From a candidate division FCPU426 bacterium (GTDB lineage Bacteria > Oederibacteriota > Muellerivitia > Muellerivitales > Muellerivitaceae): DNA of 64,000 nt. A program made the translations under genes and the position numbers. Positions 18,462 to 38,549 of the stretch are shown in pieces. The notes below the pieces were generated by a model that saw only the letters and a program-made list of their open reading frames with translations, was not told the origin of the DNA and made no database searches. The stretch lies in the NCBI GenBank assembly GCA_963738405.1, contig CAVTWJ010000020.1:1-64000 (forward strand), in the 5' to 3' direction. Numbering within the stretch: the stretch's first letter is position 1; every line of letters starts with the position of its first letter.

Positions 18462-20765
18462 ATGGAACTTCAGCCCATCTTGATCTCAATGGTGGAAAAA
18501 AAGGCTTCCGACGTTCATATGAAGGCCGGAGCCCCTCCCATGTTCCGTATTGATGGAGACCTTCAGCCCCAAAGCGAAACCCCCCTGACGCCTCAAGAAT
18601 TGGCCGAAGTAGCCTCCTACCTGATGGATGAAAAACAACAACACATTTTTTTTGATGAACACCGTGAGGTGGACTTGGCCTATGCGGTGGAAGGTCTAGC
18701 CCGTTTTCGGACCAATGCCATGTGGCAAAGAGGGCTTCCGGAAATAATCATGCGGGTCATTCCGCAAATCATCCCCCGGATTGAAGACATCAATATGCCA
18801 ACAGCGATATTAAAACAAATCGCCTCAGAACAAAGAGGCTTGATCTTGGTAACGGGTATTACGGGGTCGGGAAAAAGCACCACCTTGGCTTCCCTCATTA
18901 ATGAGATCAACCTCAACCGCTCGGCACATATTGTCACCATCGAGGACCCGATTGAATTCGTGCACCAGGATAAAAAATGCAGCGTCACCCAAAGGGAGGT
19001 GGGGCTGGATACCGAAAGTTTCAAGTCGGCCCTAAAATACGTCCTGCGGCAGGACCCCGACGTCATCCTGATCGGGGAAATGCGGGACGTGGAGACGGTT
19101 TCAGCCGCCATTTCCGCCGCGGAGACGGGCCATTTGGTACTTTCGACCCTTCATACCATGGACTCCATCCAAACGATTGAGCGAATTCTCGATTTTTTTC
19201 CCCCCACACAGCAAAACCAAATCCGGGTTCAGCTATCAGGAACGATTCGGGCGATCATTTCCCAACGGCTGGTGGGGAAAGCCGACGGCGTGGGCGTGGT
19301 GCCGGCTTGTGAGATTCTTATTGCCACTCCCACCATCAAATCACTGATCGGGGAAGGCAAAATCAGCTCGATCCGAGGTTTCATCGCGGAAGGCCATAGC
19401 CAATATGGTATGCAAACTTTTGATCAATCCCTCATCGAGCTGGTTCGAAAGGGCATGATCACCAAAGAAAACGCCATGGAGCAAGCCACTTCCCCAAGCG
19501 AAATTGACCTTGGTTTGAAGGGTATCTCTTCCTCTAAAGCCTCGGCCCAATCCCTCATCTCCCAAATGGAAAACAGCCAGCAGAAGGAACGCTTGGGCGG
19601 CTGGTTGAAGCGAGCCCAGGAACTATACGAAAAGCGAAGGGTTGACGAGACTCGAGCTGAATTGAAGCGCATCCTTCAGGAACAGCCCGATCATAAGGAA
19701 GCCAACGCCTTGATGGCAAAAATCAGGGAAGCGGATGACCAGACGGAAAAGAAAAAGGATGTTTCGGGGATTATCAAAACGGCCCTTCAAATGTACCGGG
19801 AAGGAAAACAAGAAGCCTCTATCCTGGAATTTCAAAAGGCGCTGGAAGTGGATCCCGCCAACAAACAAGCCGAGGGGTACATCCGTTCGATACGTGGGGA
19901 AATGGAAAACCAAACTCAAGCCCGGGAGGCCTTCCAGGCGGCGGTTCAGGCTCAGCGATCGGGTGATTTGAACGCGGCCTTGGGACAGGTGGAGCAGGCC
20001 TTGGCATTGGACCCCTCGCACGAACAGGCAAAGGTTTTGCGCCGTGATTTGAAACTGGCGTCGCAAAAAGAACATGCTAGGGCGAAAGCTGCAGAATTCA
20101 GCCAGTCGGCCGTCGATTTGTACAAATCGGGGGATCTCTTGGGGGCCCTTGTGGCTTGGAACCGAGCCTACGAACTTAACCCAGATTTGGAAGACGTGGC
20201 CCGATATCTCCAGCAGGGAATTCAGAAACTCCTATCCTTTGGAGTGGAAGGCGTTGAGTTGAACCCCGAAAAAGAAAATGTTTTAGGCCTTTTCGAACAA
20301 GGGGTGCGTAGTTATGTTCGGGGTGATTTTCAGACCGCGATGGAGTTTTTCAAAAAAGCCTCTGGTAAAGCGGATGGAAACAGCTATTTGGGAGCCTATC
20401 TTCAAAAGTCCTCCCAAATGCTGGAAGATCAGATCAACGAAATTTTCCAAGAAGGCTGGCGGGCCCATCAGGCGGGGGAATTGCTGAGCGCCCAAAAGGA
20501 ATATAACAAAGTACTGCGTCTTTCCCCTGGCCACCCTGAGGTGGTTCGGCAATTGGGAACCTTGAAAACCCAAGTTCTGCAGGAGTCCGAAAGGCTTTAT
20601 AACGAAGGAAAAAAATTCTTTGATCAAAATGACATGGATCAAGCGGTGAGGGTTTGGGAGAAAATCCTGGAATTGGATCCACAGAATGAGCGGGCGCAGA
20701 AAAAAATTGAAGAAGCCAAAATAAAGAAGAATACCCTTAGCGGTATCTTCTCGAAGATCGGATAG
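18462..20765 (+). CDS. pilT: PilT/PilU-family type IV pilus ATPase fused to about 400 aa of TPR repeats
   Basis: ASDVH, GITGSGKST (Walker A), TIEDPIE, LRQDPDVILIGEMRD, AETGHLVLSTLH and GMQTFDQ; repeated AL(E/A)LDP TPR motifs follow. Confidence 0.88.
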   Translation: MELQPILISMVEKKASDVHMKAGAPPMFRIDGDLQPQSETPLTPQELAEVASYLMDEKQQHIFFDEHREVDLAYAVEGLARFRTNAMWQRGLPEIIMRVIPQIIPRIEDINMPTAILKQIASEQRGLILVTGITGSGKSTTLASLINEINLNRSAHIVTIEDPIEFVHQDKKCSVTQREVGLDTESFKSALKYVLRQDPDVILIGEMRDVETVSAAISAAETGHLVLSTLHTMDSIQTIERILDFFPPTQQNQIRVQLSGTIRAIISQRLVGKADGVGVVPACEILIATPTIKSLIGEGKISSIRGFIAEGHSQYGMQTFDQSLIELVRKGMITKENAMEQATSPSEIDLGLKGISSSKASAQSLISQMENSQQKERLGGWLKRAQELYEKRRVDETRAELKRILQEQPDHKEANALMAKIREADDQTEKKKDVSGIIKTALQMYREGKQEASILEFQKALEVDPANKQAEGYIRSIRGEMENQTQAREAFQAAVQAQRSGDLNAALGQVEQALALDPSHEQAKVLRRDLKLASQKEHARAKAAEFSQSAVDLYKSGDLLGALVAWNRAYELNPDLEDVARYLQQGIQKLLSFGVEGVELNPEKENVLGLFEQGVRSYVRGDFQTAMEFFKKASGKADGNSYLGAYLQKSSQMLEDQINEIFQEGWRAHQAGELLSAQKEYNKVLRLSPGHPEVVRQLGTLKTQVLQESERLYNEGKKFFDQNDMDQAVRVWEKILELDPQNERAQKKIEEAKIKKNTLSGIFSKIG

Positions 20766-20776
20766 AAAGGGAAAAA

Positions 20777-21178
20777 ATGAAACCACTTCTTATTGGAGGA
20801 GGATTGATCATTTTGCTTTTTGTGACGGCGCTTAATACCGGTATGATTTCCGATCAAGCGAACCAATGGATTCAAAAAAACCCCAAGGACCCCAATGCCC
20901 CACAGGTTCTTTATGACGTGGCCCGCTACTGTGATATTTTGGGGGATAACAACAGAGCTCAGTCTCTTTACGATGAGTTTTATCATTTATATCCAGAGAA
21001 CTCCTCCCTTTGCGCCGCCGCTCTTTATTACGAAGCCGACAATAAAGTCGAAACTTCAGCCGTTACCAAGGCTTACGCCGTTCCCATATTGGATACGATC
21101 ATCAACCAATATCCCAACGAAGAAAAATGGGTGACGAAAGCCAAAGCGCTGAGAGATGAGGTCACCTATGTTCATTAA
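20777..21178 (+). CDS. Small membrane-anchored TPR-like (BamD/CpoB-like) protein
   Basis: N-terminal hydrophobic anchor; NPKDPNAPQVLY, LYPENS and QYPNE helical-repeat signatures. Confidence 0.5.
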   Translation: MKPLLIGGGLIILLFVTALNTGMISDQANQWIQKNPKDPNAPQVLYDVARYCDILGDNNRAQSLYDEFYHLYPENSSLCAAALYYEADNKVETSAVTKAYAVPILDTIINQYPNEEKWVTKAKALRDEVTYVH

Positions 21179-22166
21179 GAATGATTGGATTCGTTTAATC
21201 GCTTTGTGTCTGATGCTGGCCGCTTTTCCTCAAGGTTCGGTGTCGGCCAAGACGATCGAAATTGAGGAAAATGTCCAAAACCCAACAACGGCGCCAGCGT
21301 CCTCCGCCCCCTTGACGTTGGCGCCCGTCACAACTTCCTCCACATCGGCGGTTGTTCATGAAACGGCCCCGTTAGCGACCGCTCCGGTTTCGAGCCCGGA
21401 AACGGTCATTGCGGCTTCCGCTACAGGTTCTTCGAACGTGGAGAATGGAGATTTACCCCAAAGCCCAAAGGTGCGGGCACCCCAAGATTTAAGTTTTTAC
21501 TCATTCCTTATGTCAGGCTTTGTGGTTCAAGACGGGGAAAGAGTAGAGGCCTTGGGAAAGGTGGCCGTCCCATCGGATGGTTCCTTGGGCTATGCTCCGC
21601 CTCAAAAGGCCCAGGTTTTGCTCGCAGATACCTCGAAATGCAAGGTTGGCGATATTTGGACGGTTTATCATCTTGAGGAAAATATCCTTGATGAACCTGA
21701 ATTAAATTTTCAGGGATCCTTGGGCGATATTCGAGCGGTAATTCAAGTGGAGGAAATTACTAAGAACTTTGCGACGGTCAATATCATTCAGAGTTTCAGG
21801 CCCTTCGAGCCGGAGGATCAGGTCCGGGACTATGCTCTTGACGTCAAGCGTTGGAAGAGGGCACAGACGAAGAAGCCGCTTCCTTCGGCGGAGATCCGTT
21901 GTTTTGTGGCGGGCGGATCCAGAATAAAAGATTCGTATGACCAGTTGGACACTGTTATTTTAACCGCAGGGACCCGTAAGGGTTTGGTTGAAGGAATGAA
22001 ATTTGATTTGGATCAAAAAACCGATGAGGGCGCGATGGGGGGGGTGCGATTTAATAAGATTGGTACTGCAGAAGTGTTTTATTGCGGAACGACCTATAGC
22101 CTTGCCCGGATTCTTCAGTCGCAGGATGGAATCCAAAAGGGGTTTACGGCCATTTACCGGCCGTGA
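21168..22166 (+). CDS. Secreted protein with an S/T/P-rich linker and two TsaP-C/FlgT-C-like beta domains
   Basis: Signal peptide ending VSA; repeated pattern G..F/W.v......g...V......s.a.I.qS at VGDIWTV..IIQS and VEGMKFDL..ILQS; no LysM domain visible. Confidence 0.5.
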   Translation: MFIKNDWIRLIALCLMLAAFPQGSVSAKTIEIEENVQNPTTAPASSAPLTLAPVTTSSTSAVVHETAPLATAPVSSPETVIAASATGSSNVENGDLPQSPKVRAPQDLSFYSFLMSGFVVQDGERVEALGKVAVPSDGSLGYAPPQKAQVLLADTSKCKVGDIWTVYHLEENILDEPELNFQGSLGDIRAVIQVEEITKNFATVNIIQSFRPFEPEDQVRDYALDVKRWKRAQTKKPLPSAEIRCFVAGGSRIKDSYDQLDTVILTAGTRKGLVEGMKFDLDQKTDEGAMGGVRFNKIGTAEVFYCGTTYSLARILQSQDGIQKGFTAIYRP

Positions 22167-22172
22167 AAAAAA

Positions 22173-23060
22173 TTGTCACCCACTCCATCCACCAACGGGC
22201 CGATACGACTTGGAGCGGAAGAGGATCCTTTTTTTCATGCCGTACTAAGCTATCTGCTTTCGGCGAAGGGTTTTGACGCTTCCCGATACAAGCGAAACTA
22301 TATCAAGCGCCGTATAGCGGTCAGAATGAGGGCCACAGGCTCGGCGACCTACGAAGCCTATGGGAAACTCTTGACCCAAAAAAAAGATGAAGCGGGTTTG
22401 CTTTTGGACCGGCTCACGATTCATGTAACCGAGTTTTTTCGGGATTCCTCGGTGTTTCATGCGTTGAGAGAAAAGGTTTTCTCAAAACCGGCGGGGGAAG
22501 ATCTTTTCCATGTCTGGTCGGCGGGTTGCAGCACCGGTGAAGAAGCCTATTCGGCGGCGATCACTCTTAAAGACTGGGCGCTTCAGCATCCACCCTTTCC
22601 TTTTGAAATTTGGGCTACCGATATCGATCCCCAAAGCGTCAAAACCGCGGAGAAGGCTCAATATTCGGTTAGCGCACTAGCCAAAATGAGCAAAGCCCAC
22701 CAATCACGCTGGTTTTATTTTCATGAGGAAAAGGCATCGGTTGTGGAGGATTTAAAAAAACATGTCTGGTTCCGGACCCATGACCTGTTAGGGGACTGGT
22801 CGGTTGACTTGGCCCGGTTCGATATGATCTTTTGCCGAAACGTCATGATTTATATGACGGCTCCCCAACAGCAGATCCTTTATCAAAAGTTCGCCCAATC
22901 TCTCAAGGTTGGGGGCTTTTTGGTGTTAGGACTCACCGAAACGCTGATGGGCAAGGCCAGGAGTTTTTACAGGTGTGTGGACGTCAGGCACCGTATTTAC
23001 CAAACTCTTTCTGATCCGTCGTCAAAGGACTCGGCTCAAGTGGAGGCACCGATTGGATAA
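22173..23060 (+). CDS. cheR: Chemotaxis methyltransferase
   Basis: VTEFFRD, WSAGCSTGEEAYS, ATDID and IFCRNVMIY motifs. Confidence 0.93.
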   Translation: MSPTPSTNGPIRLGAEEDPFFHAVLSYLLSAKGFDASRYKRNYIKRRIAVRMRATGSATYEAYGKLLTQKKDEAGLLLDRLTIHVTEFFRDSSVFHALREKVFSKPAGEDLFHVWSAGCSTGEEAYSAAITLKDWALQHPPFPFEIWATDIDPQSVKTAEKAQYSVSALAKMSKAHQSRWFYFHEEKASVVEDLKKHVWFRTHDLLGDWSVDLARFDMIFCRNVMIYMTAPQQQILYQKFAQSLKVGGFLVLGLTETLMGKARSFYRCVDVRHRIYQTLSDPSSKDSAQVEAPIG

Positions 23061-24231
23061 AGCGCAAGACCATATCAACCTTGGAACCGCTTTTTCGATT
23101 TCCAAGCGATACGATGACGCGATCGTGGAATTCCGGAAGGCGCTTGAATTAAGCCCCTCCGACGGCGAAATTCTCTTTCAACTGGGTGGCCTTTGCACCA
23201 ATTTGGGCCGGTATGGGGAAGCCCAGGAATACTACCGCCGGGCCCTCCAGATCAATCCGATGAATCTCAATGCCCATTGTAAGTTAGGATTATTATTGGA
23301 GGCGGAGGGGAAGTACCAAGAGGCGGTTCTTGAATTTGAAAAAGCGCTTGAGTTAAACCCTTCGGATGCCGGCCTCTACAACAATTTGGGAAATGTTCTT
23401 GTGAAAATGGGGAACTATTCACAAGCGTTGGATCAATACCGGCGATATATCGGTATCAATCCGAAAAACGCTGAAATTTATTTTAAAATGGGTTTCGCTC
23501 ATGAACAAACCGGGGAATGGGATTCGGCTGTTGAGGATTATACCCTGGCCCTTCAAATCAATCCCCGCCACGCCGCGGTGCACGCCATTTTGGGAAACGC
23601 CCTCTCTAAACGGGGTAAATTTACCGAGGCCTTGGCTTGTTATGAGGAGGCCTTAAGGCTGAATCCCCACGAACCGGAAGTTCATTTCCGGATGGGCGTG
23701 GTTTTGATGAATCTTGGACATTATGACCGCGCCCAAGAAATCCTGGAACAAGCCTTGCAAAAGAATCCGTTAAACGCGGAAGTTTATCTGAAGCTGGGAA
23801 TGATTCACGCCGGAAGGGGCCGCCATGAGGACGCCATCCGGATGTATAAAAAAGTGATGGAAATCAATCCTCATGACGCGAGCGTTCATAACGTGCTGGG
23901 ATACATTTACGACAAGCAGGGGGATTCCCCAAGAGCCATGGAAGAATACCAGGCCGCCAAGGCCTTGAATCCGCACGATCTGTTGATTCTCGACAATCTG
24001 GGGAACCTTCTTTACAAAAGCGGTAAGGTGGATGAGGCCGTGGAGAATTATTCGCAAGTCGTGGCGCTCAATCCTTCCCACGGGGACGCCCACGCGAAGC
24101 TCGGGAACCTGTATCTCAAAAAGGGCGAGAAGGCCCTCGCCATTGCCCATTGGGAAAAGGCCTTGGCTTTGGAACCGCAAAACGAGATCTTGAAAAACAA
24201 CCTGAAATTTTTCAAGGAAAACGCCCAGTGA
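23053..24231 (+). CDS. All-TPR cytoplasmic protein (about 11 repeats)
   Basis: Continuous 34-aa repeats (AL.INP...LG); TTG start after GGAGG, overlapping the cheR stop. Confidence 0.9.
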   Translation: MDKAQDHINLGTAFSISKRYDDAIVEFRKALELSPSDGEILFQLGGLCTNLGRYGEAQEYYRRALQINPMNLNAHCKLGLLLEAEGKYQEAVLEFEKALELNPSDAGLYNNLGNVLVKMGNYSQALDQYRRYIGINPKNAEIYFKMGFAHEQTGEWDSAVEDYTLALQINPRHAAVHAILGNALSKRGKFTEALACYEEALRLNPHEPEVHFRMGVVLMNLGHYDRAQEILEQALQKNPLNAEVYLKLGMIHAGRGRHEDAIRMYKKVMEINPHDASVHNVLGYIYDKQGDSPRAMEEYQAAKALNPHDLLILDNLGNLLYKSGKVDEAVENYSQVVALNPSHGDAHAKLGNLYLKKGEKALAIAHWEKALALEPQNEILKNNLKFFKENAQ

Positions 24232-24866
24232 TTTCTCAACGCCAGGAAAAATCACTCGGTGAACTGCTTCGGCAGGCGGGAAAAATCACCTCCCGGCAAA
24301 TTCAGGTGGCGTTGGCGGAACAGCGAAAGAGCCATGAGCCCATCGGGAAAGTTTTGGTGCGCTTAGGGTTTGTGGAAGAAAGAGACATCCTCCAGGTTTT
24401 ACAGGGGCTTTCCGCCTTGACTTTTGTTTTAGGTCGGGAACTTTTCGGGGTTGAAACCTTCCGTGCCCGTGAAGTGATGAAATACAGCCCCTACAAATCC
24501 TCGGAAGCTCCCGGGAGCTGGGTTGGCAGCTGTCTTTTGCGTTCGAGGGAACTTCCATTGTTGTCTCTGAGGCGGGTTCTGGGGATGGAGGACCCTGTTC
24601 AGCCGACCTCCACTTGGTATATTGTTTTGGAGGTCAGGGGTCTGCCTTTCCTACTGTGGGTTGACGCAGTGAAGGAAGTGACCCGGTTTAAGGTGGATCA
24701 AATCGAGTCCCCGCCGACCTATCTCTTTGGAAAAAAGTCCGATTTATTTTATTGTTTGGGTAAAATAAAGGATGATTTGTACTCTATTTTGAATCCCGAA
24801 AAACTGCTCGAAGAGGGGCCTCTTCCTCCCTCTTTCCCAAGAGGAAACCATGCCGACCCGCCCTGA
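24228..24866 (+). CDS. MshEN-like N-terminal domain fused to a CheW domain
   Basis: SLGELLRQAGKITSRQIQVALAEQ..PIGKVLVRLGFV, then FGVETFRAREV, LRSRELPLLSLRRVLG, WVDAVKEV and ILNPEKLL; GTG start overlaps the upstream stop. Confidence 0.8.
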   Translation: MISQRQEKSLGELLRQAGKITSRQIQVALAEQRKSHEPIGKVLVRLGFVEERDILQVLQGLSALTFVLGRELFGVETFRAREVMKYSPYKSSEAPGSWVGSCLLRSRELPLLSLRRVLGMEDPVQPTSTWYIVLEVRGLPFLLWVDAVKEVTRFKVDQIESPPTYLFGKKSDLFYCLGKIKDDLYSILNPEKLLEEGPLPPSFPRGNHADPP

Positions 24867-27060: not shown

Positions 27061-27070
27061 CAGGAAAAAT

Positions 27071-27409
27071 ATGAAACTTCTCTTATGTATGTTCTCGACG
27101 AAAAAACTGGAACCCGTTAAAAAGGCCCTTTGGGAAGCGGGGGTCCGGGGTGTGACCCTATCCGACGGCTCGGGATACGGCTACCAGAGGGTCCAGGTGG
27201 AATCCGTGCAAGGGGCGGATTATAAGGTACAATACCAGGACCGTTTGAGGCTTGAGATTGTCCTTCCCGACAATGAGGTTGAGAGGGTGGTGGATATTCT
27301 CTTAGAGGTTATACGAACGGGCCGTATTGGAGACGGAAAAATATTCGTCCTACCGGTGGATGAGGCGATTCGGATCCGGACGGGCGAACGGGGCGAGAAT
27401 GCCCTTTAA
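27071..27409 (+). CDS. Divergent P-II family signal transduction protein (GlnB/GlnK-like)
   Basis: 112 aa; G35-Y-G37-Y-Q39, Y51, TGRIGDGKIFV and RIRTGE align without gaps to canonical GlnB. Confidence 0.93.
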   Translation: MKLLLCMFSTKKLEPVKKALWEAGVRGVTLSDGSGYGYQRVQVESVQGADYKVQYQDRLRLEIVLPDNEVERVVDILLEVIRTGRIGDGKIFVLPVDEAIRIRTGERGENAL

Positions 27410-27512
27410 GATTTCGAGACACAACTATTTTGACGCCCCACATATTTCGGCGTCGTTTTTAACGGGGTTCAAAGTTGTGAGGGGATGAAATAGACCTAAA
27501 TAGGAGGTTTTT

Positions 27513-27875
27513 GTGGCTCAGAAAATTCTTTTGGTCGATGACGCTTCCTTCATGCGCATGATGCTTAAAAACATCCTGGCGGGGGCGGGCTACGAAGTGG
27601 CGGGGGAAGCGGAAAACGGAGCCAAAGCTATCGAACAATACAAAACCCTTAAACCGGATCTGGTCATCATGGATATCATCATGCCCGAAATGGGCGGCAT
27701 CGACGCGGTGAGGGAAATCGTTAAGGCCAATCCCGGGGCCAAAATTCTGATGTGCAGCTCCATGGGACAGCAATCCCTGGTGGTGGAAGCCATTCAGGCC
27801 GGCGCCAAGGATTTCATCGTCAAGCCCTTCCAGCCTTCCAATGTGTTGGAAGCCGTGAAAAAGGTTCTCGGTTAG
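27513..27875 (+). CDS. cheY: Chemotaxis response regulator
   Basis: VDD, MDIIMP (phospho-Asp), SSMGQ and FIVKPF; Bacillus/Thermotoga-type CheY. Confidence 0.93.
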   Translation: MAQKILLVDDASFMRMMLKNILAGAGYEVAGEAENGAKAIEQYKTLKPDLVIMDIIMPEMGGIDAVREIVKANPGAKILMCSSMGQQSLVVEAIQAGAKDFIVKPFQPSNVLEAVKKVLG

Positions 27876-27964
27876 GTTCCGGCGTTGTTTTTGACCTTCT
27901 AAGCCGAAGGGTTCGAACAAAGGCGCAAAAGGGTTCTTGGGCCGTGTGAAAGGGAATATCCTCC

Positions 27965-28600
27965 GTGGAATCAAGCTCCCCATCCTTTTCTGAGTTTCAA
28001 TTGGACGCCCTGCGTGAAGTCGGGAATGTGGGAGCCGGCCACGCGGCCACGGCCCTTTCCCAAATGGTGGGGCGCCCCATCGGCATGTCCATCACACAAG
28101 TCATGATCCTTCCCACGGACCAGATCGCGGGTTTTTTGGGCGGGGAAAAGGCCGATGTGGCGGCTGTTTATATGCCGGTCTACGGGGACCTATGCGGTGT
28201 GGTCTTAATTTTTTTTCCATTGGATCTCCTTCCTGATTTGGCCGGGCTGCTCTTGAAAAGGGACCCCCAATCACCCGAATTGTCTGAAATGGACCACTCG
28301 GCCATCAAAGAACTGGGGAGCATCCTCACCGGGTCTTATTTGAGTGCCCTTTACCGTTTCATCCATGTCCAAATGATTCACGGCGTACCAACCCTGGTCG
28401 TGGATATGGCCCAGGCCATTTTGGACACCGTTTTTGTGGATCTGGAACAAAAAGATGACATGGCCATCGTGATTGAATCCAGCTTGACGGAGAACGAACG
28501 AAAGTTAACGGGCAGGTTTTTTCTTCTTCCCGAGGCCGGAACCCTGCCGAAACTTTTTAAGGCCTTTACCCAGTCAATTGAAATGTCGGGCAATGCCTGA
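27965..28600 (+). CDS. cheC: CheY-P phosphatase CheC
   Basis: DALREVGNVGAGHAATALS; the second site reads SAIKELGS. Confidence 0.92.
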   Translation: MESSSPSFSEFQLDALREVGNVGAGHAATALSQMVGRPIGMSITQVMILPTDQIAGFLGGEKADVAAVYMPVYGDLCGVVLIFFPLDLLPDLAGLLLKRDPQSPELSEMDHSAIKELGSILTGSYLSALYRFIHVQMIHGVPTLVVDMAQAILDTVFVDLEQKDDMAIVIESSLTENERKLTGRFFLLPEAGTLPKLFKAFTQSIEMSGNA

Positions 28601-29078
28601 GTCGGAATGGCCTGTCGGAATCGCAGAAATCAAAACCGCCCGGAGTCCCGATCGGCTCTCGGCCATCGGTCTTGGGTCTTGCGTGGGGGTGGCGGTCTGG
28701 GATGGTGAATCCGGTTGGGGTGCCCTGGCCCATGTGATGCTGCCGGCTCAAAATGGACTCTCCAGTGTTCCCGTTCGCGGTAAGTTTGCCGATACCGCCG
28801 TCGAGTGGTTATTGGCCGAATTAGTCCAAAGGGGGGCTGATTTGGGAAGGTTGAAAGCCAAACTGGTGGGAGGGGCGAATATGTTTAACTCGATTCATCA
28901 TAACCCCCTGCCGGTAGGATTGCGCAATGTCATGGCCTGCCGGGAGGAATTGTCCCAAAGGGGAATTCCCATTGTGGCGGAGGATATCGGGGGGAGCAAG
29001 GGCCGTTCCATCCTGTTTCATCCGGAAGACGGACGAATCTTGATTCGTTCACTGAAACAGCCCGAAAGGTGGATCTAA
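28593..29078 (+). CDS. cheD: Chemoreceptor glutamine deamidase
   Basis: GLGSCVGV, AHVMLP, KFADTA, KLVGGANMF and EDIGG..GR motifs. Confidence 0.94.
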   Translation: MPESEWPVGIAEIKTARSPDRLSAIGLGSCVGVAVWDGESGWGALAHVMLPAQNGLSSVPVRGKFADTAVEWLLAELVQRGADLGRLKAKLVGGANMFNSIHHNPLPVGLRNVMACREELSQRGIPIVAEDIGGSKGRSILFHPEDGRILIRSLKQPERWI

Positions 29079-29079
29079 C

Positions 29080-29652
29080 ATGACGGCCGAGGAGCCTCCC
29101 GCCGGGAATCCCGTTATGACCCCGTCTTTCGGGGCTGGCGAAGGCCTGGAAATTCCCGGCGACACCCCCGCTCCGGAGGATCCGCAGGCCCAACTGATCA
29201 TTTTTACGCTGGCGGGCTGCTCTTTTGGCATCGCCATCCGGCAAGTGCGTGAGATTTTGAGGCTGACCAACATTACCCGAATGCCCAAGGCGCCTTCCTT
29301 TTTGGAGGGGATCATCCACCTTCGGGGCCGTATTACCCCCGTGCTGGATCCCAAAAAAAGGCTTGGATTGCCCCTGACGGACCGCACGGGGGACAGCCGG
29401 ATTTTAGTGGTGGAATGGAAAGAGTTGATGCTGGGGCTGTTGGTGGACCGGGTCGTGGAGACCCTCAAGATTTACCGTTCTGAACTCAAATCCGTTCCTC
29501 CTGAGGGTGGACTGGGCGTGGACCCCTCTTTTTTTTCGGGCCTTTGGGAAGGGCCCTCTCGCGAGGTGCTGTTGTTGAGCTTGGAAAACCTCATCCGGCT
29601 GGAAGAACCCAATTCGGAGCCAGGCTTTCGGCCTGGTTCCCAGGAGGAATAA
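29080..29652 (+). CDS. cheW: CheW adaptor
   Basis: FGIAIRQVREI, P.APSFLEGIIHLRGRITPVLD and GLLVDRV motifs. Confidence 0.92.
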   Translation: MTAEEPPAGNPVMTPSFGAGEGLEIPGDTPAPEDPQAQLIIFTLAGCSFGIAIRQVREILRLTNITRMPKAPSFLEGIIHLRGRITPVLDPKKRLGLPLTDRTGDSRILVVEWKELMLGLLVDRVVETLKIYRSELKSVPPEGGLGVDPSFFSGLWEGPSREVLLLSLENLIRLEEPNSEPGFRPGSQEE

Positions 29653-29655
29653 GCC

Positions 29656-30018
29656 TTGGCGATCAAAGTTTTGTTCGCGGACGATTCATCTTTTATGCGG
29701 GGAATATTAAAAGGCATTATCTTAAAAGACCCTTACGTTCTCGCGGGGGAAGCGGAAAACGGCAAGCAAGCGGTGGAACAATTCCAGGCCTTGAAACCCG
29801 ACCTGGTCACCATGGACATCGTAATGCCTGAAATGGACGGCATCGAAGCGGTTAAGAAAATCCGAGAAATAAATCCTTCCGCCCGAATCATCATGGTATC
29901 GGCCATGGGCCAACAGGCCATGGTCATTGAGGCCATCCAGGCAGGCGCCAGGGATTTTATTATCAAGCCTTTCCAGCCGCCTCGGGTTCACGAATCCTTA
30001 AAAAGGGTCATGGGGTAG
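29656..30018 (+). CDS. cheY: Second CheY response regulator
   Basis: ADD, MDIVMP, SAMGQ and FIIKPF; close paralog of the first cheY. Confidence 0.92.
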   Translation: MAIKVLFADDSSFMRGILKGIILKDPYVLAGEAENGKQAVEQFQALKPDLVTMDIVMPEMDGIEAVKKIREINPSARIIMVSAMGQQAMVIEAIQAGARDFIIKPFQPPRVHESLKRVMG

Positions 30019-30019
30019 C

Positions 30020-31114
30020 ATGGGTCCAACGGACGCAAATACCAAGCCACCCATCCGCGTTCTCGTGGTTGATGATTCTTTTTTCATGAGAAAAATGATC
30101 GCGGAGGCTCTCGACGCGCCCGGCACGGGAATGAGGGTAGTGGAAACGGCCTCCGACGGCCTGGAGGCGCTGGCGAAAGTTAAAACCATCAAGCCGGATG
30201 TTCTGACCCTCGATGTGGAAATGCCCAAGTTGGACGGGATTGCCACGCTGGAGCGGCTCATGGTCGAGTATCCCCTGCCGGTGGTGATGCTTTCCAGCCA
30301 TACGGGAAAGGGCACCGAGGCGACCCTCAAGGCCTTGGAACTGGGAGCGGTCGAATGCGTCTTGAAACCAGCCGGCGGCGTTCCCGGTTCTCTCAAGGGC
30401 ATCGAGCAAGAGCTGGTCGAAAAAATACGTTTGGCCTCCCAATGCACCCCCCGGCCCGGCCGGGTTTCCTTAGCGCGGGCGTTTGCCCCCAGCCACGCGT
30501 CTTCTCAACCGAGGGAAGGGCGCACGTCCAATTCAGCCCGATTTTTGGTCTGTGTGGCTTCCTCGACGGGCGGACCCAGGGCCTTAAATGAATTTTTCTC
30601 GGGATTGATTCCTCATCCCCTGGCCGCCCTTCTGGTGGTTCAGCATATCTCCGTGGGTTTTACCCAAGCCCTGGCCCGCCGCCTATCCGAAGCTGGTCCC
30701 ATGCTTGTCACCGAAGCCGTCAAGGGAGAAAGGGTTTTGGGAGGCAGGGGATATGTCGCCCCCGCCGGAAATCATTTGGTGGTGGAAGGGAAGGCCGGAG
30801 AATTTATTTTTCAATTCAGCGATTTGCCTCCGCGGTTAGGGGTCAAGCCCTCCGCTGATGTCCTGATGAGCTCGGCGGCCAAGGCGGCAGGCCCCAAATG
30901 CCTGGGAGTCGTCTTGACGGGCATGGGGAGAGATGGCACCCAGGGCCTCAAGGATATCCGTTCAGTGGGGGGGAAAACTTTCGCTCAGATCCCTGAATCC
31001 TGCGTGGTTTACGGCATGCCCAAATCGGCGGTGGAGGCGGGGGTTGTTTCCCGCCAATTGGACCTGCAGCCTATGGCCCTTGAAATCAACCATTTGTTAT
31101 CCAATGAGGCTTAG
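30020..31114 (+). CDS. cheB: Chemotaxis methylesterase with REC domain
   Basis: LDVEMP; catalytic SSTGGP, VQH and LTGMGRDG; CVVYGMP. Confidence 0.95.
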   Translation: MGPTDANTKPPIRVLVVDDSFFMRKMIAEALDAPGTGMRVVETASDGLEALAKVKTIKPDVLTLDVEMPKLDGIATLERLMVEYPLPVVMLSSHTGKGTEATLKALELGAVECVLKPAGGVPGSLKGIEQELVEKIRLASQCTPRPGRVSLARAFAPSHASSQPREGRTSNSARFLVCVASSTGGPRALNEFFSGLIPHPLAALLVVQHISVGFTQALARRLSEAGPMLVTEAVKGERVLGGRGYVAPAGNHLVVEGKAGEFIFQFSDLPPRLGVKPSADVLMSSAAKAAGPKCLGVVLTGMGRDGTQGLKDIRSVGGKTFAQIPESCVVYGMPKSAVEAGVVSRQLDLQPMALEINHLLSNEA

Positions 31115-31188
31115 CTTAATAACGAGTGAAATTTTAACTAAGCTAATATGACGGATAATCTGAAGATGCGAAGGGAATTGGGATCTAT

Positions 31189-33273: not shown

Positions 33274-33484
33274 ACAACCTCGGTTGGGTCTTGGGCCTCT
33301 CCAAGTGGCGCCATGGCTCATGGGAAAAACCTGTTAATAACCGATCAAGTTTAACCGCCGATTTCCCGGCTTTTCCCCTAAAATAAAGCGAAACCGGACT
33401 TTTCTTTTTGGGCCCTTCGTCTTGCCCGAAGCATGATTCCTTAACGGGTCAAAGTCCCGCGTTTCAAACGGGGGAAGCGGAAAA

Positions 33485-35545
33485 TTGAACACTCAGGACT
33501 ATAAAGATTTATTTCTCACCGAAGCCCGCGATTACCTCTCTACCTTGAACAACGCCTTGGTAGCCCTTGAAAAAGATCCTGCCCATTCGGAGGCGGTGAA
33601 GGAAATTTTCCGCGCCGCCCACACCCTTAAGGGCATGTCCGCCACCATGGGGTATACCCCCCTGACGACCCTGACCCATCAGATGGAAAGCGCCATGGAA
33701 CCCGTTCGATCCGGTTTAACCCCCCTTTCCCCCGATTTGGTGGACACCCTTTTTGCCTGTTTGGACCGGCTGGAATCCTGGGTAAAGACCCTCGAGTCGG
33801 GCGAGGAAATAAACGAAGAGTCCATTGGAAATCTAGTGGAGAGGCTTTCTTCCTCGTTGGGGGTTCCGGTTGCCCCCGGGTCGGGCTCGGCACCATCGGT
33901 AACCCTTCCTACCCCCTCTTTTGTTTTTGACGAAAATGAAAAGAGCATCCTGGCCCAGGCTAGGGTCAACGGTTTTTCGATCTTTCGAATCCTTGTCCGA
34001 GTTGAGCCGGGTTGTGTTTTCAAGGAAGTGCGGGCCTTCATGGTTTTGAAAAATCTTAATGACTTGGGGGAGGTGGTCAAGTCTAATCCCCCGGGGACGG
34101 TGGTGGAAAAGGGGGAGTTTGACCGGTCTTTTGAGTTGATCCTGGTCACGGAAAATTCCGCACAAAAGATTCAAGCGGCGGTTCTTTCGGTGGTTGAGGT
34201 GGAGGCCGCGGTGGTAACGCCCTTTGACCCTTCTGCACCCGAAACAGGGGCATCCGTCCTGGCCGCCGAGGCGCAGACACCGAAACCTTCCGAGTTCGGC
34301 GCCCCGGGGGAGGATAAAAACATCGCCTTCCCTACGATTCGTGTCCACACCAGCAAACTGGATAAGCTCATGACCCTGGTGCAGGAGCTGGTGATTTCCA
34401 AGATACGCTTTGAGATGGTGGCCGCCAACGGCGAGGTCAAGGAACTGCGGGAACCTTTAAATCAGCTGCACCATATCACCGACGAGCTTCAAGATGAAAT
34501 TATGAAAGTGCGCCTCATCCCCGTCAAACAGGTCTTTGACCGGTTTCCCCGCATGGTCCGGGATCTGGCGAAGAAACTTGGGAAACAAGTCAATCTTGAG
34601 ATGGACGGCGCGGAGGTTGAGCTGGATCGCACCGTGATTGATGAGATCGGGGAGCCCCTGGTCCATCTCTTGCGAAACGCCGTTGATCACGGCGTCGAGG
34701 ACCCGGAAGAGAGGGCCCGGGACGGTAAAGACCCCTTCGGCACCATACGGCTTCAGGCCAAGAGGGAAAGATCCTCGGTGGTTTTATCTGTCATTGACGA
34801 CGGAAAGGGAATCGACCCCGAAAAGGTGCGCCAGCGGTCGGTGAGCAAGGGGCTCATGACGGCGGAAGAGGCGGGGAAACTTTCCGATGAGGAGGCGGTC
34901 CGGCTCATCAGCCTTCCTGGATTTTCCCTCGCGGAAAGGGCCACCGAGGTTTCAGGGCGCGGGGTGGGCGTGGACGCGGCCAAGGCGAAGGTCGAATCGA
35001 TGGGTGGCAGTTTCCGAATCCAGAGCCGAAAGGGAGTGGGCACCACCTTCTTCCTGCGTTTTCCCCTGACCCTGGCTATCATCAAGGCTCTGCTTATCAA
35101 GGCCGGGGGCGAGACCTTTGCCCTTCCCGTGACGGGAGTTCTGGAGACCTTGGAGATCAACCCTTCCGAAAAACGCAGGCTCCAGTTGCAGGATACCCTA
35201 TTGCTGCGCGATGAGGTGCTGCCCCTCTATCACTTGGCGGAACTGCTCGAGTTAAAAAACTCGCCGCCCCCCCAGGATTTGGAATCGGTGGTAGTTGTTG
35301 AGGTGGGAGAGTCGAAGGTGGGTCTTCTGGTGGACGCCATTGTGAGCCAGAACGAGATCGCCATTAAGCCCCTGGACCGCTTTTTGAAAAAAATCCGGGG
35401 GTTTGCCGGAGCCACGGTTTTAGGGGACGGCCATATCGCCCTCGTGCTGGATGTGAACAGCCTCATTGAGGATTTACGTGAACGCCGTCATCGAGCCGAT
35501 TATTCTCTTCCAGGTAAGGAAAACGCCCATGCTCTTGAATCTTGA
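33485..35545 (+). CDS. cheA: Chemotaxis histidine kinase
   Basis: IFRAAHTLKG (Hpt), a P2 domain, HLLRNAVDHG, DDGKGID, GRGVGVD, PLTLAII and a C-terminal CheW domain. Confidence 0.97.
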   Translation: MNTQDYKDLFLTEARDYLSTLNNALVALEKDPAHSEAVKEIFRAAHTLKGMSATMGYTPLTTLTHQMESAMEPVRSGLTPLSPDLVDTLFACLDRLESWVKTLESGEEINEESIGNLVERLSSSLGVPVAPGSGSAPSVTLPTPSFVFDENEKSILAQARVNGFSIFRILVRVEPGCVFKEVRAFMVLKNLNDLGEVVKSNPPGTVVEKGEFDRSFELILVTENSAQKIQAAVLSVVEVEAAVVTPFDPSAPETGASVLAAEAQTPKPSEFGAPGEDKNIAFPTIRVHTSKLDKLMTLVQELVISKIRFEMVAANGEVKELREPLNQLHHITDELQDEIMKVRLIPVKQVFDRFPRMVRDLAKKLGKQVNLEMDGAEVELDRTVIDEIGEPLVHLLRNAVDHGVEDPEERARDGKDPFGTIRLQAKRERSSVVLSVIDDGKGIDPEKVRQRSVSKGLMTAEEAGKLSDEEAVRLISLPGFSLAERATEVSGRGVGVDAAKAKVESMGGSFRIQSRKGVGTTFFLRFPLTLAIIKALLIKAGGETFALPVTGVLETLEINPSEKRRLQLQDTLLLRDEVLPLYHLAELLELKNSPPPQDLESVVVVEVGESKVGLLVDAIVSQNEIAIKPLDRFLKKIRGFAGATVLGDGHIALVLDVNSLIEDLRERRHRADYSLPGKENAHALES

Positions 35546-36146
35546 TGATTTGACCCCATCCCAGGTGGATGCCCTAAAGGAGGTCGGCAATATCGGGGCG
35601 GGCCACGGCGCCACGGCCCTTTCCCAAATGCTGGGGAAAAAGATCAAAATTACCGTTCCCCGGGCGACCGTCCTTCCCTTAAGCGAAGTGCCGAATCTAG
35701 TGGGGGACCCCCAAACCCTGGTGGCGGGCCTTTGCCTCGCCATCCTGGGGGACGCGACGGGCAAGATATTCTTGCTCTTTCCCCGCACCTCGGCCCTCCA
35801 CCTGGCCGATTTGCTTTTGAAGCAGGAAGTGGGTACCAGCCAGATCCTTAACGAATTGGGGCATTCCGCCATTAAGGAGGCGGGCAACATCCTCGCGGGG
35901 GCTTACCTGAGCGCCTTGAATGAGTTTTTGGGGATGCTTCTTTTGATGTCCGTTCCCACGCTGGTTTTTGACATGGCCGGGGCGCTCTTGACCACTTTGG
36001 CCCAGGGGATGGAAAAAACCTCCAAAGTCATCGTGATTGAAACCCAATTTTTGGATGATAACGAGGTGGTGGGAGGCTATTTCATCCTTGCGCCCGATCC
36101 CGTTTCACTCCAGGCGATTTTCCAGGCTATCCGGGTCACTAAATAG
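35529..36146 (+). CDS. cheC: Second CheC phosphatase
   Basis: DALKEVGNIG and SAIKEAGNIL, both E-x-x-N sites intact. Confidence 0.92.
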   Translation: MLLNLDDLTPSQVDALKEVGNIGAGHGATALSQMLGKKIKITVPRATVLPLSEVPNLVGDPQTLVAGLCLAILGDATGKIFLLFPRTSALHLADLLLKQEVGTSQILNELGHSAIKEAGNILAGAYLSALNEFLGMLLLMSVPTLVFDMAGALLTTLAQGMEKTSKVIVIETQFLDDNEVVGGYFILAPDPVSLQAIFQAIRVTK

Positions 36147-36225
36147 GCTGTTGCCCATGTTAAGATAGTTTTGTTTTTTGGCACCCTTATCTAAATGAAT
36201 TCAAATCCCTGAAAGGATTTGTAGG

Positions 36226-37434
36226 ATGAATGAAAACCTTATTTTATTAACCCAAATCAACGAACTTTGTCTTTCTCCCCATCCCACCCCGGCCCATATC
36301 GCCTATGCCTGTTTGAAATGGCGTGAAAAGTACGACTTTGACACGGTATTCATGGCGGTTTCCGGCGCGCCAGAGGAACCTATTACCGCCTTAGCCTTCG
36401 ACGGCAAGGATGAACTGATGGATACGGGACTTTACCGTCTTGGTGTTGAGGAGCGTCTCGCCCTCAGCCGGGGCTCTTACTCTTATAAAACCTATTCGGA
36501 CATTACGGGCAAACCCGTTTTCAACAAATACGGGTCCCTCCGCATGCAAAAACCCAACGGCGGAACTTTTATCGCTGCCTTCCAGCCCCAGGTCCGCTTC
36601 ATCCTCTTTGGCTTGATGCACGAGGTGCCTAAACCCTACCCGGATGATCTGCTCAAGGAAATGGCGGCCCTTTGGAAGGATTGGCAGGAACCCCTCAATA
36701 AATCTTTGGACAAGATATTAGCCTCCGGGTATCCCTCGAGCGCGGTCAAGGCCGAATCGACGCCGCCGTCGAATGAACCGCCCGCCCCCATTCCCGCCGC
36801 GAAGCCCGATGATAAAAAGGCGGAGCATCCAACCGCCCAAATCCATGCCGCGGTTTCGCCTGTTCATCCGGAAACCAGAATCGTCGATCAACCTCTGCCA
36901 GTGAGCGTCCCTTCCGCGGAGGGGCCAATCCCTTCCGTTGAAAATAACGGCAAGCACCGCAGGCCCGTGATGCTGGTCGATGAGGTCACGAGGCTTTTTA
37001 ATAAGAGCTATTTTGAGGAAAGCCTTCTCATTGAGGTGGAGAGGGCTAAAAGATATGGTCGAAGCGTCAGCCTGATGTTCCTTGAGGTCACCCCCTTGGC
37101 GCCTCTGGGCCCTAAGGAAAACGAAGTCGCGACCCAAGTAGCCGAGATATTATCCAACAGCCTCCGCCGGGTGGATGTCATCTGCCGGCTGAGCGCCAAC
37201 CGCTACGGAATCGTCCTGCCCGACACCGCCAACCACACCTACGGCATCATCGGAAAAAGGATTTTTAAGTATTACAAACAACTGATGGGGGACCAGCCGC
37301 CGGTGTTTATCAATTTAAGCGCCTCTACCTATCCCGAGCACGTGGGGAACCACCTGGAATTATATGAGAATGCCGATAAACTTTTAGCGCAGGCCAAGGC
37401 CGCCGGCCCCAACAAAGCCGTTTTGCCGGAATAA
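36226..37434 (+). CDS. Degenerate GGDEF-domain protein with an unrecognised N-terminal domain and a Pro-rich linker
   Basis: DEVTRLFN..EVERAKRY; RRVD (RxxD I-site) followed by RLSANRY in place of RYGGDEF. Confidence 0.8.
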   Translation: MNENLILLTQINELCLSPHPTPAHIAYACLKWREKYDFDTVFMAVSGAPEEPITALAFDGKDELMDTGLYRLGVEERLALSRGSYSYKTYSDITGKPVFNKYGSLRMQKPNGGTFIAAFQPQVRFILFGLMHEVPKPYPDDLLKEMAALWKDWQEPLNKSLDKILASGYPSSAVKAESTPPSNEPPAPIPAAKPDDKKAEHPTAQIHAAVSPVHPETRIVDQPLPVSVPSAEGPIPSVENNGKHRRPVMLVDEVTRLFNKSYFEESLLIEVERAKRYGRSVSLMFLEVTPLAPLGPKENEVATQVAEILSNSLRRVDVICRLSANRYGIVLPDTANHTYGIIGKRIFKYYKQLMGDQPPVFINLSASTYPEHVGNHLELYENADKLLAQAKAAGPNKAVLPE

Positions 37435-37436
37435 TC

Positions 37437-38549
37437 ATGGATGACCGCTCCGCCCTCCTTGCCCTCCATTTGACCGGTGTCATTGGACCCCGCCGCCTGA
37501 AATCCGCAAAGGAAGCCTTTCCCCAACTGGAAGATGTTTTTGGGGCGAAAGAAGAACGTCTTTACGAACTTCCCGATTGGACTTTAACCTGCGCGAAAAA
37601 AGTCCTAAGCCTTGAAAATCCCGCCCGGAGGGTTGAACAGGAGATGGAGGAGGCGGACCGGTTTGGCATCCGGGTTTTTGTGGAGGGAGATTCTGATTTT
37701 CCCTCCGTCTTTCAAAACCTCTACGACCCTCCATTTGTTTTGTGGGCCAAAGGCGAACTGTTTAAAGAAGATGAAAATGCCATCGCCATCATCGGCTGCC
37801 GCCGTCCCACCCCCTACGGAAAGCACGCGGCCTTGCATTTGGCGGAAGGCGTGGCAAGGGCGGGCTACCGGGTCGTCTCGGGGCTAGCCCGGGGTATTGA
37901 TTCTCTGGCCCATCGGGGAGCGCTTAAATTTCCCCAGGGAAGAACCTTGGCTTTTTTAGGAAGCGGACTTTTGAATATGTACCCGCCTGAAAACCGGGAA
38001 CTGGCCGAGGAAATCACCCAACGGGGCGCGGTTTTAAGCGAATATCCCCTCCACGCCAAGCCCCTGGCCCTTCACTTTCCCCAGCGAAACCGCCTCATTA
38101 GCGGGGCGTCCCGGGGAGTATTGGTGGTGGAGGCCAATAAGGACAGCGGGTCTTTTATTACCGTGGATCACGCCCTGGAACAGGGCAGGCCCGTATTCGC
38201 GGTGCCGGGTCCCATCGACCATCCCCAATCGGAAGGCACCCATGCCTTGATTCAGCAGGGAGCCCGGCTGGTCACGGGGGTGGAGGATATCTTTCACGAA
38301 CTGGGAGATTTAAGGGCGGAAACCCTTTTTAAATCGGGAGGCGGAAAGGGAAGGGTCCCGCCGAACCGGGAATTGCTTTCAGCGGAGGAACAACTTCTTC
38401 TCGAAAAAATGTCCCACGAGCCTCTGCATGTGGACCAACTGGCCCGTGAAACCCAGTCGGACCTGCGTAAACTCAACGAGCTTTTGCTTTTTTTGGAAAT
38501 GAAGGGCTTTGTCCAGCAGACCCCCGGGCATTGTTATTTCAAGTTATAG
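37437..38549 (+). CDS. dprA: DNA processing protein DprA
   Basis: DPPFVL, IAIIGCR, VSGLARGID, FPQRNRLISG, VVEA..SGS.IT and FAVPG motifs; winged-helix C-terminus. Confidence 0.96.
   Translation: MDDRSALLALHLTGVIGPRRLKSAKEAFPQLEDVFGAKEERLYELPDWTLTCAKKVLSLENPARRVEQEMEEADRFGIRVFVEGDSDFPSVFQNLYDPPFVLWAKGELFKEDENAIAIIGCRRPTPYGKHAALHLAEGVARAGYRVVSGLARGIDSLAHRGALKFPQGRTLAFLGSGLLNMYPPENRELAEEITQRGAVLSEYPLHAKPLALHFPQRNRLISGASRGVLVVEANKDSGSFITVDHALEQGRPVFAVPGPIDHPQSEGTHALIQQGARLVTGVEDIFHELGDLRAETLFKSGGGKGRVPPNRELLSAEEQLLLEKMSHEPLHVDQLARETQSDLRKLNELLLFLEMKGFVQQTPGHCYFKL

Follow-up and report, generated by a model that had tools for sequence, protein, structure and literature searches.

The 64,000-nucleotide stretch analysed here (the window, which is the first half of contig C20, GenBank CAVTWJ010000020.1, of a candidate division FCPU426 bacterium) carries a 20-kb run in which chemotaxis (che) genes stand between a gene for a PilT/PilU-family ATPase fused to TPR repeats (PilT-TPR) and dprA, and the question raised by this locus is whether the run encodes one system. 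An earlier note on this DNA had proposed that it does, as a receptor-less chemosensory cluster joined to a type IV pilus and competence locus. All 19 genes listed in that note, and their order, were confirmed by Pfam, NCBIfam, and fold matches; they are 19 open reading frames (ORFs) on the + strand between 18432 and 38549, of which 17 match the expected Pfam families (Table 1). The answer from the comparisons below is that the cluster is a variant F1-type chemosensory system with conserved P-II and cyclic di-GMP (c-di-GMP) modules, and not one che-pilus-competence machine. As the best explanation of the run as a whole, to which we give a probability of roughly one half, we regard it as three separable things lying end to end, an envelope module, a che operon, and a GGDEF protein with dprA, in which 22173-36146 would be the phylum's conserved Thermotoga/Bacillus-type (F1-like) chemosensory operon plus four extra genes: those for the TPR proteins TPR418 and TPR736, for a CheW headed by an MshEN domain (MshEN-CheW), and for a P-II protein.

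The source genome (G000) is 3.18 Mb long in 23 contigs and 90.7% complete. It was placed in a phylum sample of 99 genomes, itself included, that was searched with CheA, FliM, and PilT-TPR, and the tabulation of presence and absence was restricted to the 60 genomes that are at least 90% complete. Flanking DNA was compared from 30 phylum genomes with tblastn searches using the window proteins, and 13 families were examined, of which f1 is the family of the source genome. The window proteins were scanned with Pfam and NCBIfam models, and their folds were compared with PDB structures by Foldseek and VIA-align.

These tblastn comparisons found the core in the order CheR-TPR418-MshEN/CheW-TPR736-P-II-CheY-CheC-CheD-(MCP)-CheW-CheY-CheB-CheA-CheC, where MCP is a methyl-accepting chemotaxis protein, in 12 of the 13 families (f1, f2, f3, f7, f8, f10, f16, f17, f18, f19, f21, and f23). 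Family f3 is the sole core-bearing family with no TPR736 in the cluster, family f22 has the second half of the core only at the locus fetched, and in f7 and f10 the core is split, with CheR to CheB at one site and CheA-CheC at another. TPR418 orthologues come directly after CheR in 12 families, and TPR736 is conserved over its full length, with a mean column identity of 62% in an alignment of 15 orthologues; when its C-terminal 177 residues served as the query, generic TPR proteins alone came back and the known orthologues were missed too, which makes this search uninformative on distribution outside the phylum. CheY1 and CheY2 fell into two separate clades, each spanning all families, in a FastTree phylogeny of 48 sequences; they share 60% identity (other receiver-domain, or REC, matches in the source genome reach at most 36%), the alpha4-beta5-alpha5 face is near-invariant in both, and each is followed one to three genes downstream by a gene for a CheC phosphatase if the NHL-repeat gene inserted here is set aside. 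The CheA phylogeny has four deep clades, with a low support of 0.68 for their mutual branching. Judging from these alignments, the extra parts (MshEN-CheW, P-II, TPR736, and both CheYs) are under selection, and the cluster is common to the whole uncultured phylum, with extra parts that probably sense the metabolic and second-messenger state of the cell. The NHL gene (31189-33273) was tried as a further part of the system and rejected, as it lies between CheB and CheA in the source genome only among the relatives' loci examined; it is a recent insertion, and it has paralogues on contigs C2, C18, and C19 that are 30-34% identical.

The type of the pathway was judged from its CheA, which has one Hpt domain, a P2 domain, H-kinase_dim, HATPase_c, and a CheW-like domain, with no receiver domain. 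This protein scored 520 bits against the CheA_Halo model and 362 bits against that of the E. coli-type CheA, both below cut-off, and overall the best NCBIfam models were haloarchaeal for CheA and CheY and of Thermotogales for CheC and CheD, all matched below the equivalog cut-offs. The suggestion that the CheA/CheC/CheD set is F1-like was borne out to this extent, its best models being Thermotoga or archaeal in type. In the Wuichet-Zhulin classification, F1 is the class found in Thermotoga maritima, Bacillus subtilis, and the archaea. With these the window cluster shares a P2-bearing CheA, CheW, single-domain CheY, CheB, CheR, CheC, and CheD, but it differs in having two CheY and two CheC paralogues and in having TPR418, MshEN-CheW, TPR736, and P-II, which have no counterpart in F1 operons; the window-type system also persists in genomes where no flagellar gene was found. 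CheAs of the type IV pilus class (ChpA-like) have several Hpt domains and a C-terminal receiver, and assignment to this Pil-Chp type was rejected for the window CheA, with its one Hpt domain, its P2 domain, and no receiver, in which it is unlike ChpA and FrzE. Pil-Chp of Pseudomonas and Frz of Myxococcus are likewise che-type pathways adjoining pilus genes, but the window cluster has no PilG/PilH- or FrzZ-type regulators, it has CheC and CheD, and its PilT-TPR is separable from the che genes. Frz also has a CheR-TPR protein (FrzF) and TPR proteins in its motility machinery, according to PMC3447774. The source genome has two further che clusters, with REC-REC regulators and P2-less or truncated CheAs, and a fourth, weak CheA-like gene on contig C19. 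In one of these, the second che cluster (G000:C1:1-12400), a CheA truncated at the end of the contig is followed by CheW, a TonB-dependent receptor, a YfiR/HmsC-like protein, and a CHASE8 MCP, and then by CheW, MCP, CheR, CheD, CheB, and a REC-REC protein.

The claim that no MCP and no flagellar gene is present stands for the 64 kb of the window but not for the genome, which has seven MCP genes (eight matches, two in one frame), all outside the window, as well as FliM, FlhA, and a complete flagellar cluster. Nor is the cluster receptor-less elsewhere in the phylum, where 13 loci of nine other families carry an MCP of 420-437 residues between CheD and CheW; this slot is empty in f1, f2, f7, and f10. 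The in-cluster MCP has two N-terminal transmembrane helices with nearly no loop between them, and its best relative in the source genome, at C1:216 kb, is 39% identical over 371 residues. Residues 201-422 of one MCP (L003:919-2196) align nearly gap-free to residues 89-309 of PDB 2ch7 (T. maritima TM1143), a structure of the 44-heptad class that would be expected of F1 partner MCPs.

What sets this operon apart is its complement of predicted second-messenger and metabolic inputs, and the MshEN, the P-II, and the dead GGDEF with its I-site that the earlier note had pointed out are real and conserved among the orthologues aligned. Residues 36-85 of MshEN-CheW match NF053729, the MshE-related c-di-GMP motif, at 59 bits versus a cut-off of 38, and the N-terminus consists of two 24-residue motifs with a 5-residue spacer, both motifs being kept in 15 orthologues. 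When the relaxed motif of Wang et al. 2016 (PMC5013675) is used as the reference, the Gly and the majority of the hydrophobic residues agree with it; motif 1 starts with S/T, outside the relaxed set R/K/P/N, and motif 2 ends in L/M/I. The two-motif layout is that of the MshE-type receptor; here, however, the domain heads a CheW, and c-di-GMP binding is predicted. A narrow pattern search for MshEN-CheW gave 17 loci, 14 of them full-length relatives and three with the MshEN motif only; the metagenome-assembled genomes (MAGs) of the 14 are titled Goldiibacteriota, Firestonebacteria, "uncultured Spirochaetia", "uncultured bacterium" or "bacterium", and titles of related MAG records also include Goldbacteria. 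The relatives number 464, and the source-named ones are annotated just as CheW or chemotaxis signal transduction protein. Wang et al. 2016 (PMC5013675) list the MshEN domain fused to CheA and CheX; we found no publication on an MshEN-CheW fusion, although the supplementary tables of that paper may include CheW-domain fusions. A side observation on these genes is that the same-genus genome G001 (C20) has an internal stop in the MshEN-CheW frame and a TPR736 frame split by a frameshift, which are either assembly errors or decay.

The P-II protein matches PF00543 well above its cut-off (80 versus 25 bits) and reaches 90 bits against the GlnB/GlnK equivalog models, below their cut-offs of 181-202. 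In 15 orthologues the B-loop RTGRxGDGKxF and the C-terminal RxRTGE are invariant, and the T-loop is variable, with Tyr51 kept in family f1 only. It is the fifth P-II paralogue of the genome, the other four lying on C14 and being at most 43% identical to it. GlnB and GlnK share with it the P-II fold family and the nucleotide-binding residues, and the difference is that the window P-II is encoded inside a che operon phylum-wide; our literature search found nothing on a P-II within a che cluster. P-II has been linked to c-di-GMP enzymes in Azospirillum (PMC7646526). The protein encoded downstream of the operon combines a GAF fold over residues 1-166 (Z ~12) with a GGDEF fold over residues 251-402 (Z 18.8). 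The active site of the latter reads SANRY and is degenerate in six of six orthologues, and its I-site RRVD (RxxD) is intact and invariant in all six. The protein was found in families f1 and f2 only, and the explanation favoured here takes it for a putative c-di-GMP-receptor-like protein special to the taxonomic order of the source genome. Families f23 (L042:2707-4116) and f8 (L043:2906-4285) have an HD_5 (HD-GYP-type) protein of 459-469 residues between the TsaP-like gene and CheR, and this is another c-di-GMP-related part of the cluster.

Upstream of CheR, the first gene of the run encodes the PilT-TPR fusion. Its longest ORF starts at 18432, and the database forms of 767 residues are consistent with a start at 18462. 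Residues 13-357 match TIGR01420 at 465 bits (cut-off 319), and the Walker A, Asp box, Walker B, and His box motifs are intact. At the position of AIRNLIRE, presumably the motif of bona fide PilT, the fusion reads TIKSLIGE and the canonical PilT of the source genome (C23) reads AVRNLIRE. The 63 best-scoring relatives of the TPR half (23-86% identity) are PilT-TPR-type proteins or fragments, and a literature search found nothing on such a fusion. The small TPR protein that follows matches TIGR02795 YbgF below cut-off (E 8e-7) and is conserved beside the next gene, which encodes a TsaP-like protein present as a single copy in the genome. The latter has a signal peptide, an A/S/T/P-rich linker, and a C-terminal domain (100-336) modelled at a pLDDT of ~90, with residues 22-98 disordered. 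The "tsaP-like" label given to it held up, as the fold of its C-terminal 230 residues has one strong match in the PDB, P. aeruginosa TsaP bound to PilQ (6ve2_O), both by Foldseek (E 3.1e-5, TM 0.66 on the target) and by VIA-align (Z 13.7, rmsd 3.6, 205 of 225 residues), the second-best match being a flagellar LPHT-ring chain at Z 9.7. The fold shared with TsaP of type IVa pili goes along with an identity of just 9-14%. TsaP has an N-terminal LysM peptidoglycan-binding domain, and in the window protein no LysM domain or other Pfam family was found at E <= 0.001; the window homologue also differs in co-varying with flagella and PilT-TPR rather than with PilQ.

A profile built from nine orthologues found TsaP-like homologues beside CheR or 1.4-1.5 kb upstream of it in 18 of the 33 loci scanned, in families f1, f2, f3, f8, f16, f18, f19, f21, and f23; with the same profile none was found upstream of CheR in f7/f10, and none in G024, G057, and G028. 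In 20 genomes (16 of f1, one of f2, and three of f3) PilT-TPR and CheA share a strand at a distance of 11.4-13.9 kb, and they are unlinked in 15 genomes of f8, f16, f17, f19, f21, f22, and f23, where they are on different contigs or 570 kb apart (G094). The linkage of pilT to che that had been proposed is present in three families and absent in seven, and the TsaP-like gene is more faithful to the che operon than PilT-TPR is. In G020 (f3), PilT-TPR, the small gene, and the TsaP-like gene sit between prmC and CheR; in G024 (f7), CheR comes directly after prfA-prmC. From its domains, 18462-22166 would be an envelope module, and the machine it serves could be either pili or the flagellum. It is preceded, at 13817-18357, by a gene for a 785-residue TPR protein and a gene for a TPR-containing membrane protein that resembles TMEM260 (O-mannosyltransferase-type), and one or both of these genes also lie upstream of PilT-TPR in f1 relatives.

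Whether PilT-TPR belongs with the che genes was judged from the 60 near-complete genomes. Canonical FliM, CheA, and PilT-TPR occur together in 31 of them. Among the other CheA carriers, six have neither FliM nor PilT-TPR, six have only a weak FliM-like gene and no PilT-TPR, two have PilT-TPR with no FliM, and one has canonical FliM with no PilT-TPR; among genomes without CheA, seven have both canonical FliM and PilT-TPR, one has canonical FliM only, and six have none of the three. PilT-TPR therefore occurs without the che system in 7/60 genomes and the che system without PilT-TPR in 13/60, whereas canonical FliM is present in 38 of the 40 genomes with PilT-TPR and in 2 of the 20 without it, and the TsaP-like gene shows the same co-occurrence with FliM in the few genomes tested. 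The distribution of PilT-TPR follows that of canonical FliM much more closely than that of che; since the relatives are not independent, this co-occurrence is a pattern and not a test. In genus g13 (G015, 99% complete, and G064) the entire CheR-to-GGDEF block is absent, cleanly deleted, and the remnant reads TMEM260/TPR - PilT-TPR - small TPR - TsaP-like - DprA - TopA, with FliM retained. The fusion and the che genes each occur alone, and g13 lost the che block yet kept PilT-TPR, the TsaP-like gene, and flagella, which is at odds with their being one system.

These data bear on the model of the earlier note, in which a dedicated path would run from che to pili or DNA uptake, with phosphorylated CheY (CheY-P) acting through TPR adaptors on PilT-TPR and with P-II and c-di-GMP in place of receptors. 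The contiguity of PilT-TPR, small TPR, TsaP-fold gene, and CheR in 20 genomes of f1, f2, and f3 speaks for such a path, as do the TsaP fold, which points to a pilus secretin, and the retention of che without flagella in f7/f10, where CheA-CheC lies ~4 kb from pilQ. However, those flagella-less genomes lack PilT-TPR (0/15 in f7/f10), and G024 and G057 are among the genomes in which the profile found no TsaP-like gene; PilT-TPR follows FliM instead of che, it does not have the motif that canonical PilT keeps, and in other families an MCP is encoded within the cluster itself. We consider this model improbable. The downstream end of the run points the same way. Across the phylum DprA is found downstream of CheC2, in most cases with TopA as the next gene, and the pair stays together after loss of the che block; because DprA-TopA persist together where that block is gone, we read the position of dprA as frozen synteny, and a link to DNA uptake finds no support from it. 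As a candidate member of the system dprA was rejected on the ground that it stays with topA in relatives lacking the che block. The dprA-topA gap is ~15.5 kb in the window (38550-54033), and the two genes are adjacent in G015, G064, G025, G078, and G087; in the gap lie a gene for a 2757-residue NHL-repeat protein (42060-50333), whose C-terminus is weakly FlgD_ig-like, and several genes with no Pfam match.

The next question is what the operon controls, and for the source genome the evidence points to flagella. Contig C1 has a complete flagellar cluster (FlgBC, FliEFGHIJ, MotAB, FliLMN, FliOPQR, FlhBAFG, FliA, and FapA) with no che gene inside, and C23 has a canonical pilB-pilT-pilMNO-pilQ locus. 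FliM begins MDDLLSDGEVSALL, a CheY-P-binding type of peptide by comparison with the consensus at the FliM N-terminus, and CheY1 and CheY2 are the only CheY-type proteins of the source genome. Among the canonical FliMs with a readable N-terminus, a set that leaves out the GC-rich loci of G029 and G022, the peptide is kept in 9/9, four of them from genomes without this CheA; because it is kept where this CheA is absent, the peptide is permissive evidence only. What the earlier note had named beforehand as refuting it, a full flagellar system with FliM as the evident CheY target together with no conservation of the pilT/TPR/dprA linkage to the che genes in relatives, was found in part: the flagellar system with a CheY-binding FliM exists, and the linkage is partly conserved.

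A plain reading of this would be flagellar chemotaxis, with the operon steering the flagellum only, the extra proteins tuning or localising the arrays, PilT-TPR and dprA being historical neighbours, and the flagella-less families having re-purposed the system. The full flagellar cluster and the CheY-binding FliM N-terminus fit it well, and so do three further observations: no other che cluster of the source genome combines a P2-bearing CheA with single-domain CheYs, REC-REC regulators being used by the remaining two; 32 of the 46 near-complete carriers of this CheA have canonical FliM; and PilT-TPR is unlinked to the operon in the 15 genomes of seven families noted above. It accounts less well for flagella without this system, which are common in the phylum, and for the retention of both ancient CheYs, with CheC nearby, even where no flagellar gene was found, and we regard it as rather unlikely in this pure form. 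Six f7/f10 genomes that are 91-100% complete (G024, G051, G053, G055, G056, and G057) have the CheA orthologue without FliM; FliG_C and FliP are also absent in five of the six (all but G051), and G024 and G057, both 100% complete, have no FlhA yet retain the 13 core genes in full, with both CheYs, P-II, and MshEN-CheW among them. Because near-complete genomes keep the che system without flagellar genes, a non-flagellar output must, on this gene content, exist somewhere in the phylum, and at that scope the possibility of such an output, raised before, is upheld. A very divergent FliM-like gene (E 1e-7 to 1e-16) that lacks the CheY-binding peptide occurs in other f7/f10 genomes, adjacent to an FlhA gene of normal type. 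Examples of this gene are at G030:C2:965-972 kb, in G046:C169, and in G052:C2. Flagella may have been lost secondarily in f7/f10, an argument from parsimony only, and type IV pili are a plausible second output.

The non-flagellar output might instead lie outside motility. In an alternative-cellular-function (ACF) pathway, the metabolic and c-di-GMP state would be passed to the envelope, the matrix, or the cell cycle through TPR or FtsA/PilM-like proteins. According to PMC3447774, ACF pathways typically have a CheR joined to a TPR partner. The c-di-GMP parts recur as well (MshEN-CheW everywhere, the dead GGDEF in the window, and the HD_5 gene in f8/f23), and most families have an FtsA/PilM-like protein of ~700 residues after CheC2, that is, between CheC2 and DprA. 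This protein was found in f2, f3, f7, f8, f10, f16-f19, and f21-f23 (L022:16828-19005, L023:975-3101, L044:16697-18838, and eight more loci) and is absent from family f1 and the source genome; it has an actin fold in residues 1-350 and, in three of five scanned, a weak ThiS/MoaD-like beta-grasp in the C-terminal half. Single-domain CheYs, a P2-bearing CheA, CheC, and CheD nevertheless mark taxis pathways, and the cluster has no multidomain response regulator, so that we hold an ACF pathway to be a poor prospect.

Returning to the F1-like operon with its extra parts, a mechanism can be sketched. Arrays would form from CheW, MshEN-CheW, CheA, and short MCPs that are membrane hairpins lacking a periplasmic sensor domain; the genes for such MCPs lie within the operon in other families and outside it in the source genome. 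The MshEN head and the GGDEF I-site would bring in c-di-GMP, P-II would bring in ATP, ADP, and 2-oxoglutarate, and CheR/CheB and CheC/CheD would provide adaptation. CheA would phosphorylate CheY1 and CheY2, whose target in the source genome is most likely the flagellar switch, via the FliM N-terminus, and somewhere in the phylum the same system would also need a target other than the flagellum, for which type IV pili are the most plausible candidate. In its strongest form, which we offer as speculative and on balance unlikely, the array senses the cell interior: hairpin MCPs lacking a ligand-binding domain would be tuned by P-II and by c-di-GMP read at a CheW-type coupler, TPR418 and TPR736 would be scaffolds or adaptors, and the two CheYs would split the signal between the flagellar switch and type IV pili, hence the survival of flagella loss.

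Several observations weigh against parts of this account. The F1-like placement was made by domain content with NCBIfam models as a proxy, and is to be read as a likeness. PilT-TPR together with the TsaP-like gene stands directly before the operon in three families, and nine families have the TsaP-like gene there, which leaves room for a functional tie. On the flagellar side, the FliM peptide is kept in G015, G064, G023, and G026, all without this CheA; 8 of the 40 near-complete genomes with canonical FliM do not have this CheA; and, of the four among these eight that were searched at E <= 1e-30, G015, G023, and G029 gave no CheA at all and G022 gave only distant paralogues. On the pilus side, the CheA-CheC pair of f7/f10 is parted from pilT-pilMNO-pilQ, the only pil genes close to che there, by aroC, aroK, pta, and a methyltransferase gene.

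Table 1. Genes of the 20-kb run, with window positions and the matches that identify them.
Feature	Position	Strand	Match or remark
PilT/PilU-family ATPase + ~400 residues of TPR/coiled coil (PilT-TPR)	18462..20765	+	TIGR01420 pilT_fam
Small membrane-anchored YbgF-like TPR protein, 133 residues	20777..21178	+	N-terminal hydrophobic helix; weak TIGR02795
Secreted TsaP-fold protein, 336 residues	21156..22166	+	Fold match 6ve2_O; no Pfam family
CheR methyltransferase	22173..23060	+	PF01739 E 1.8e-49, PF03705
TPR418, TPR protein of ~390-418 residues	22975..24231	+	11 TPR repeats
MshEN-CheW, 238-residue ORF (database form 212 residues)	24150..24866	+	NF053729; PF01584 E 1.3e-20
TPR736, TPR protein of 736 residues	24850..27060	+	Pfam TPR
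Divergent P-II	27071..27409	+	PF00543 80 bits
CheY1	27513..27875	+	PF00072; best NCBIfam model CheY_Halo
CheC1 phosphatase	27965..28600	+	PF04509; CheC_Thtogales E 1e-38
CheD deamidase	28578..29078	+	PF03975; CheD_Thtga E 1.5e-41
CheW	29080..29652	+	PF01584; abuts CheD
CheY2	29656..30018	+	PF00072
CheB methylesterase with receiver domain	30020..31114	+	PF01339, PF00072
NHL-repeat protein, 694 residues	31189..33273	+	NHL; genome-specific insertion
CheA	33485..35545	+	Hpt, P2, dimerisation, HATPase_c, CheW domains
CheC2 phosphatase	35466..36146	+	PF04509; CheC_Thtogales E 1e-48
GAF-linker-degenerate GGDEF protein	36226..37434	+	GGDEF fold; intact RxxD I-site
DprA	37437..38549	+	TIGR00732 240 bits, cut-off 191

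These genes had been described as one co-directional run. The orientation itself was confirmed, but the + strand carries all sizeable genes between base 20 and 38549, among them glgB, accA, valS, nadC, birA, and coaX, and since housekeeping genes of the same stretch are also all on it, co-directionality is weak evidence. When 18000-37999 was scanned for promoters and terminators, the counts were close to those expected from shuffled sequence and no intergenic terminator stood out, so that the scan was uninformative.

Chemotaxis arrays rank with the best-understood signalling machines, yet our literature searches turned up no array in which a P-II and a CheW that reads c-di-GMP are fixed parts throughout a phylum. 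The neighbourhood of pilT and dprA is no evidence for a che-pilus-competence machine. The natural "knock-outs" of the phylum (genomes with che but no flagella, with flagella but no che, and with PilT-TPR but no che) yield testable predictions on the partners of the two CheYs. If the reading is true, these bacteria would have a direct molecular route from metabolic state, and from the second messenger of the sessile/motile decision, to taxis bias.

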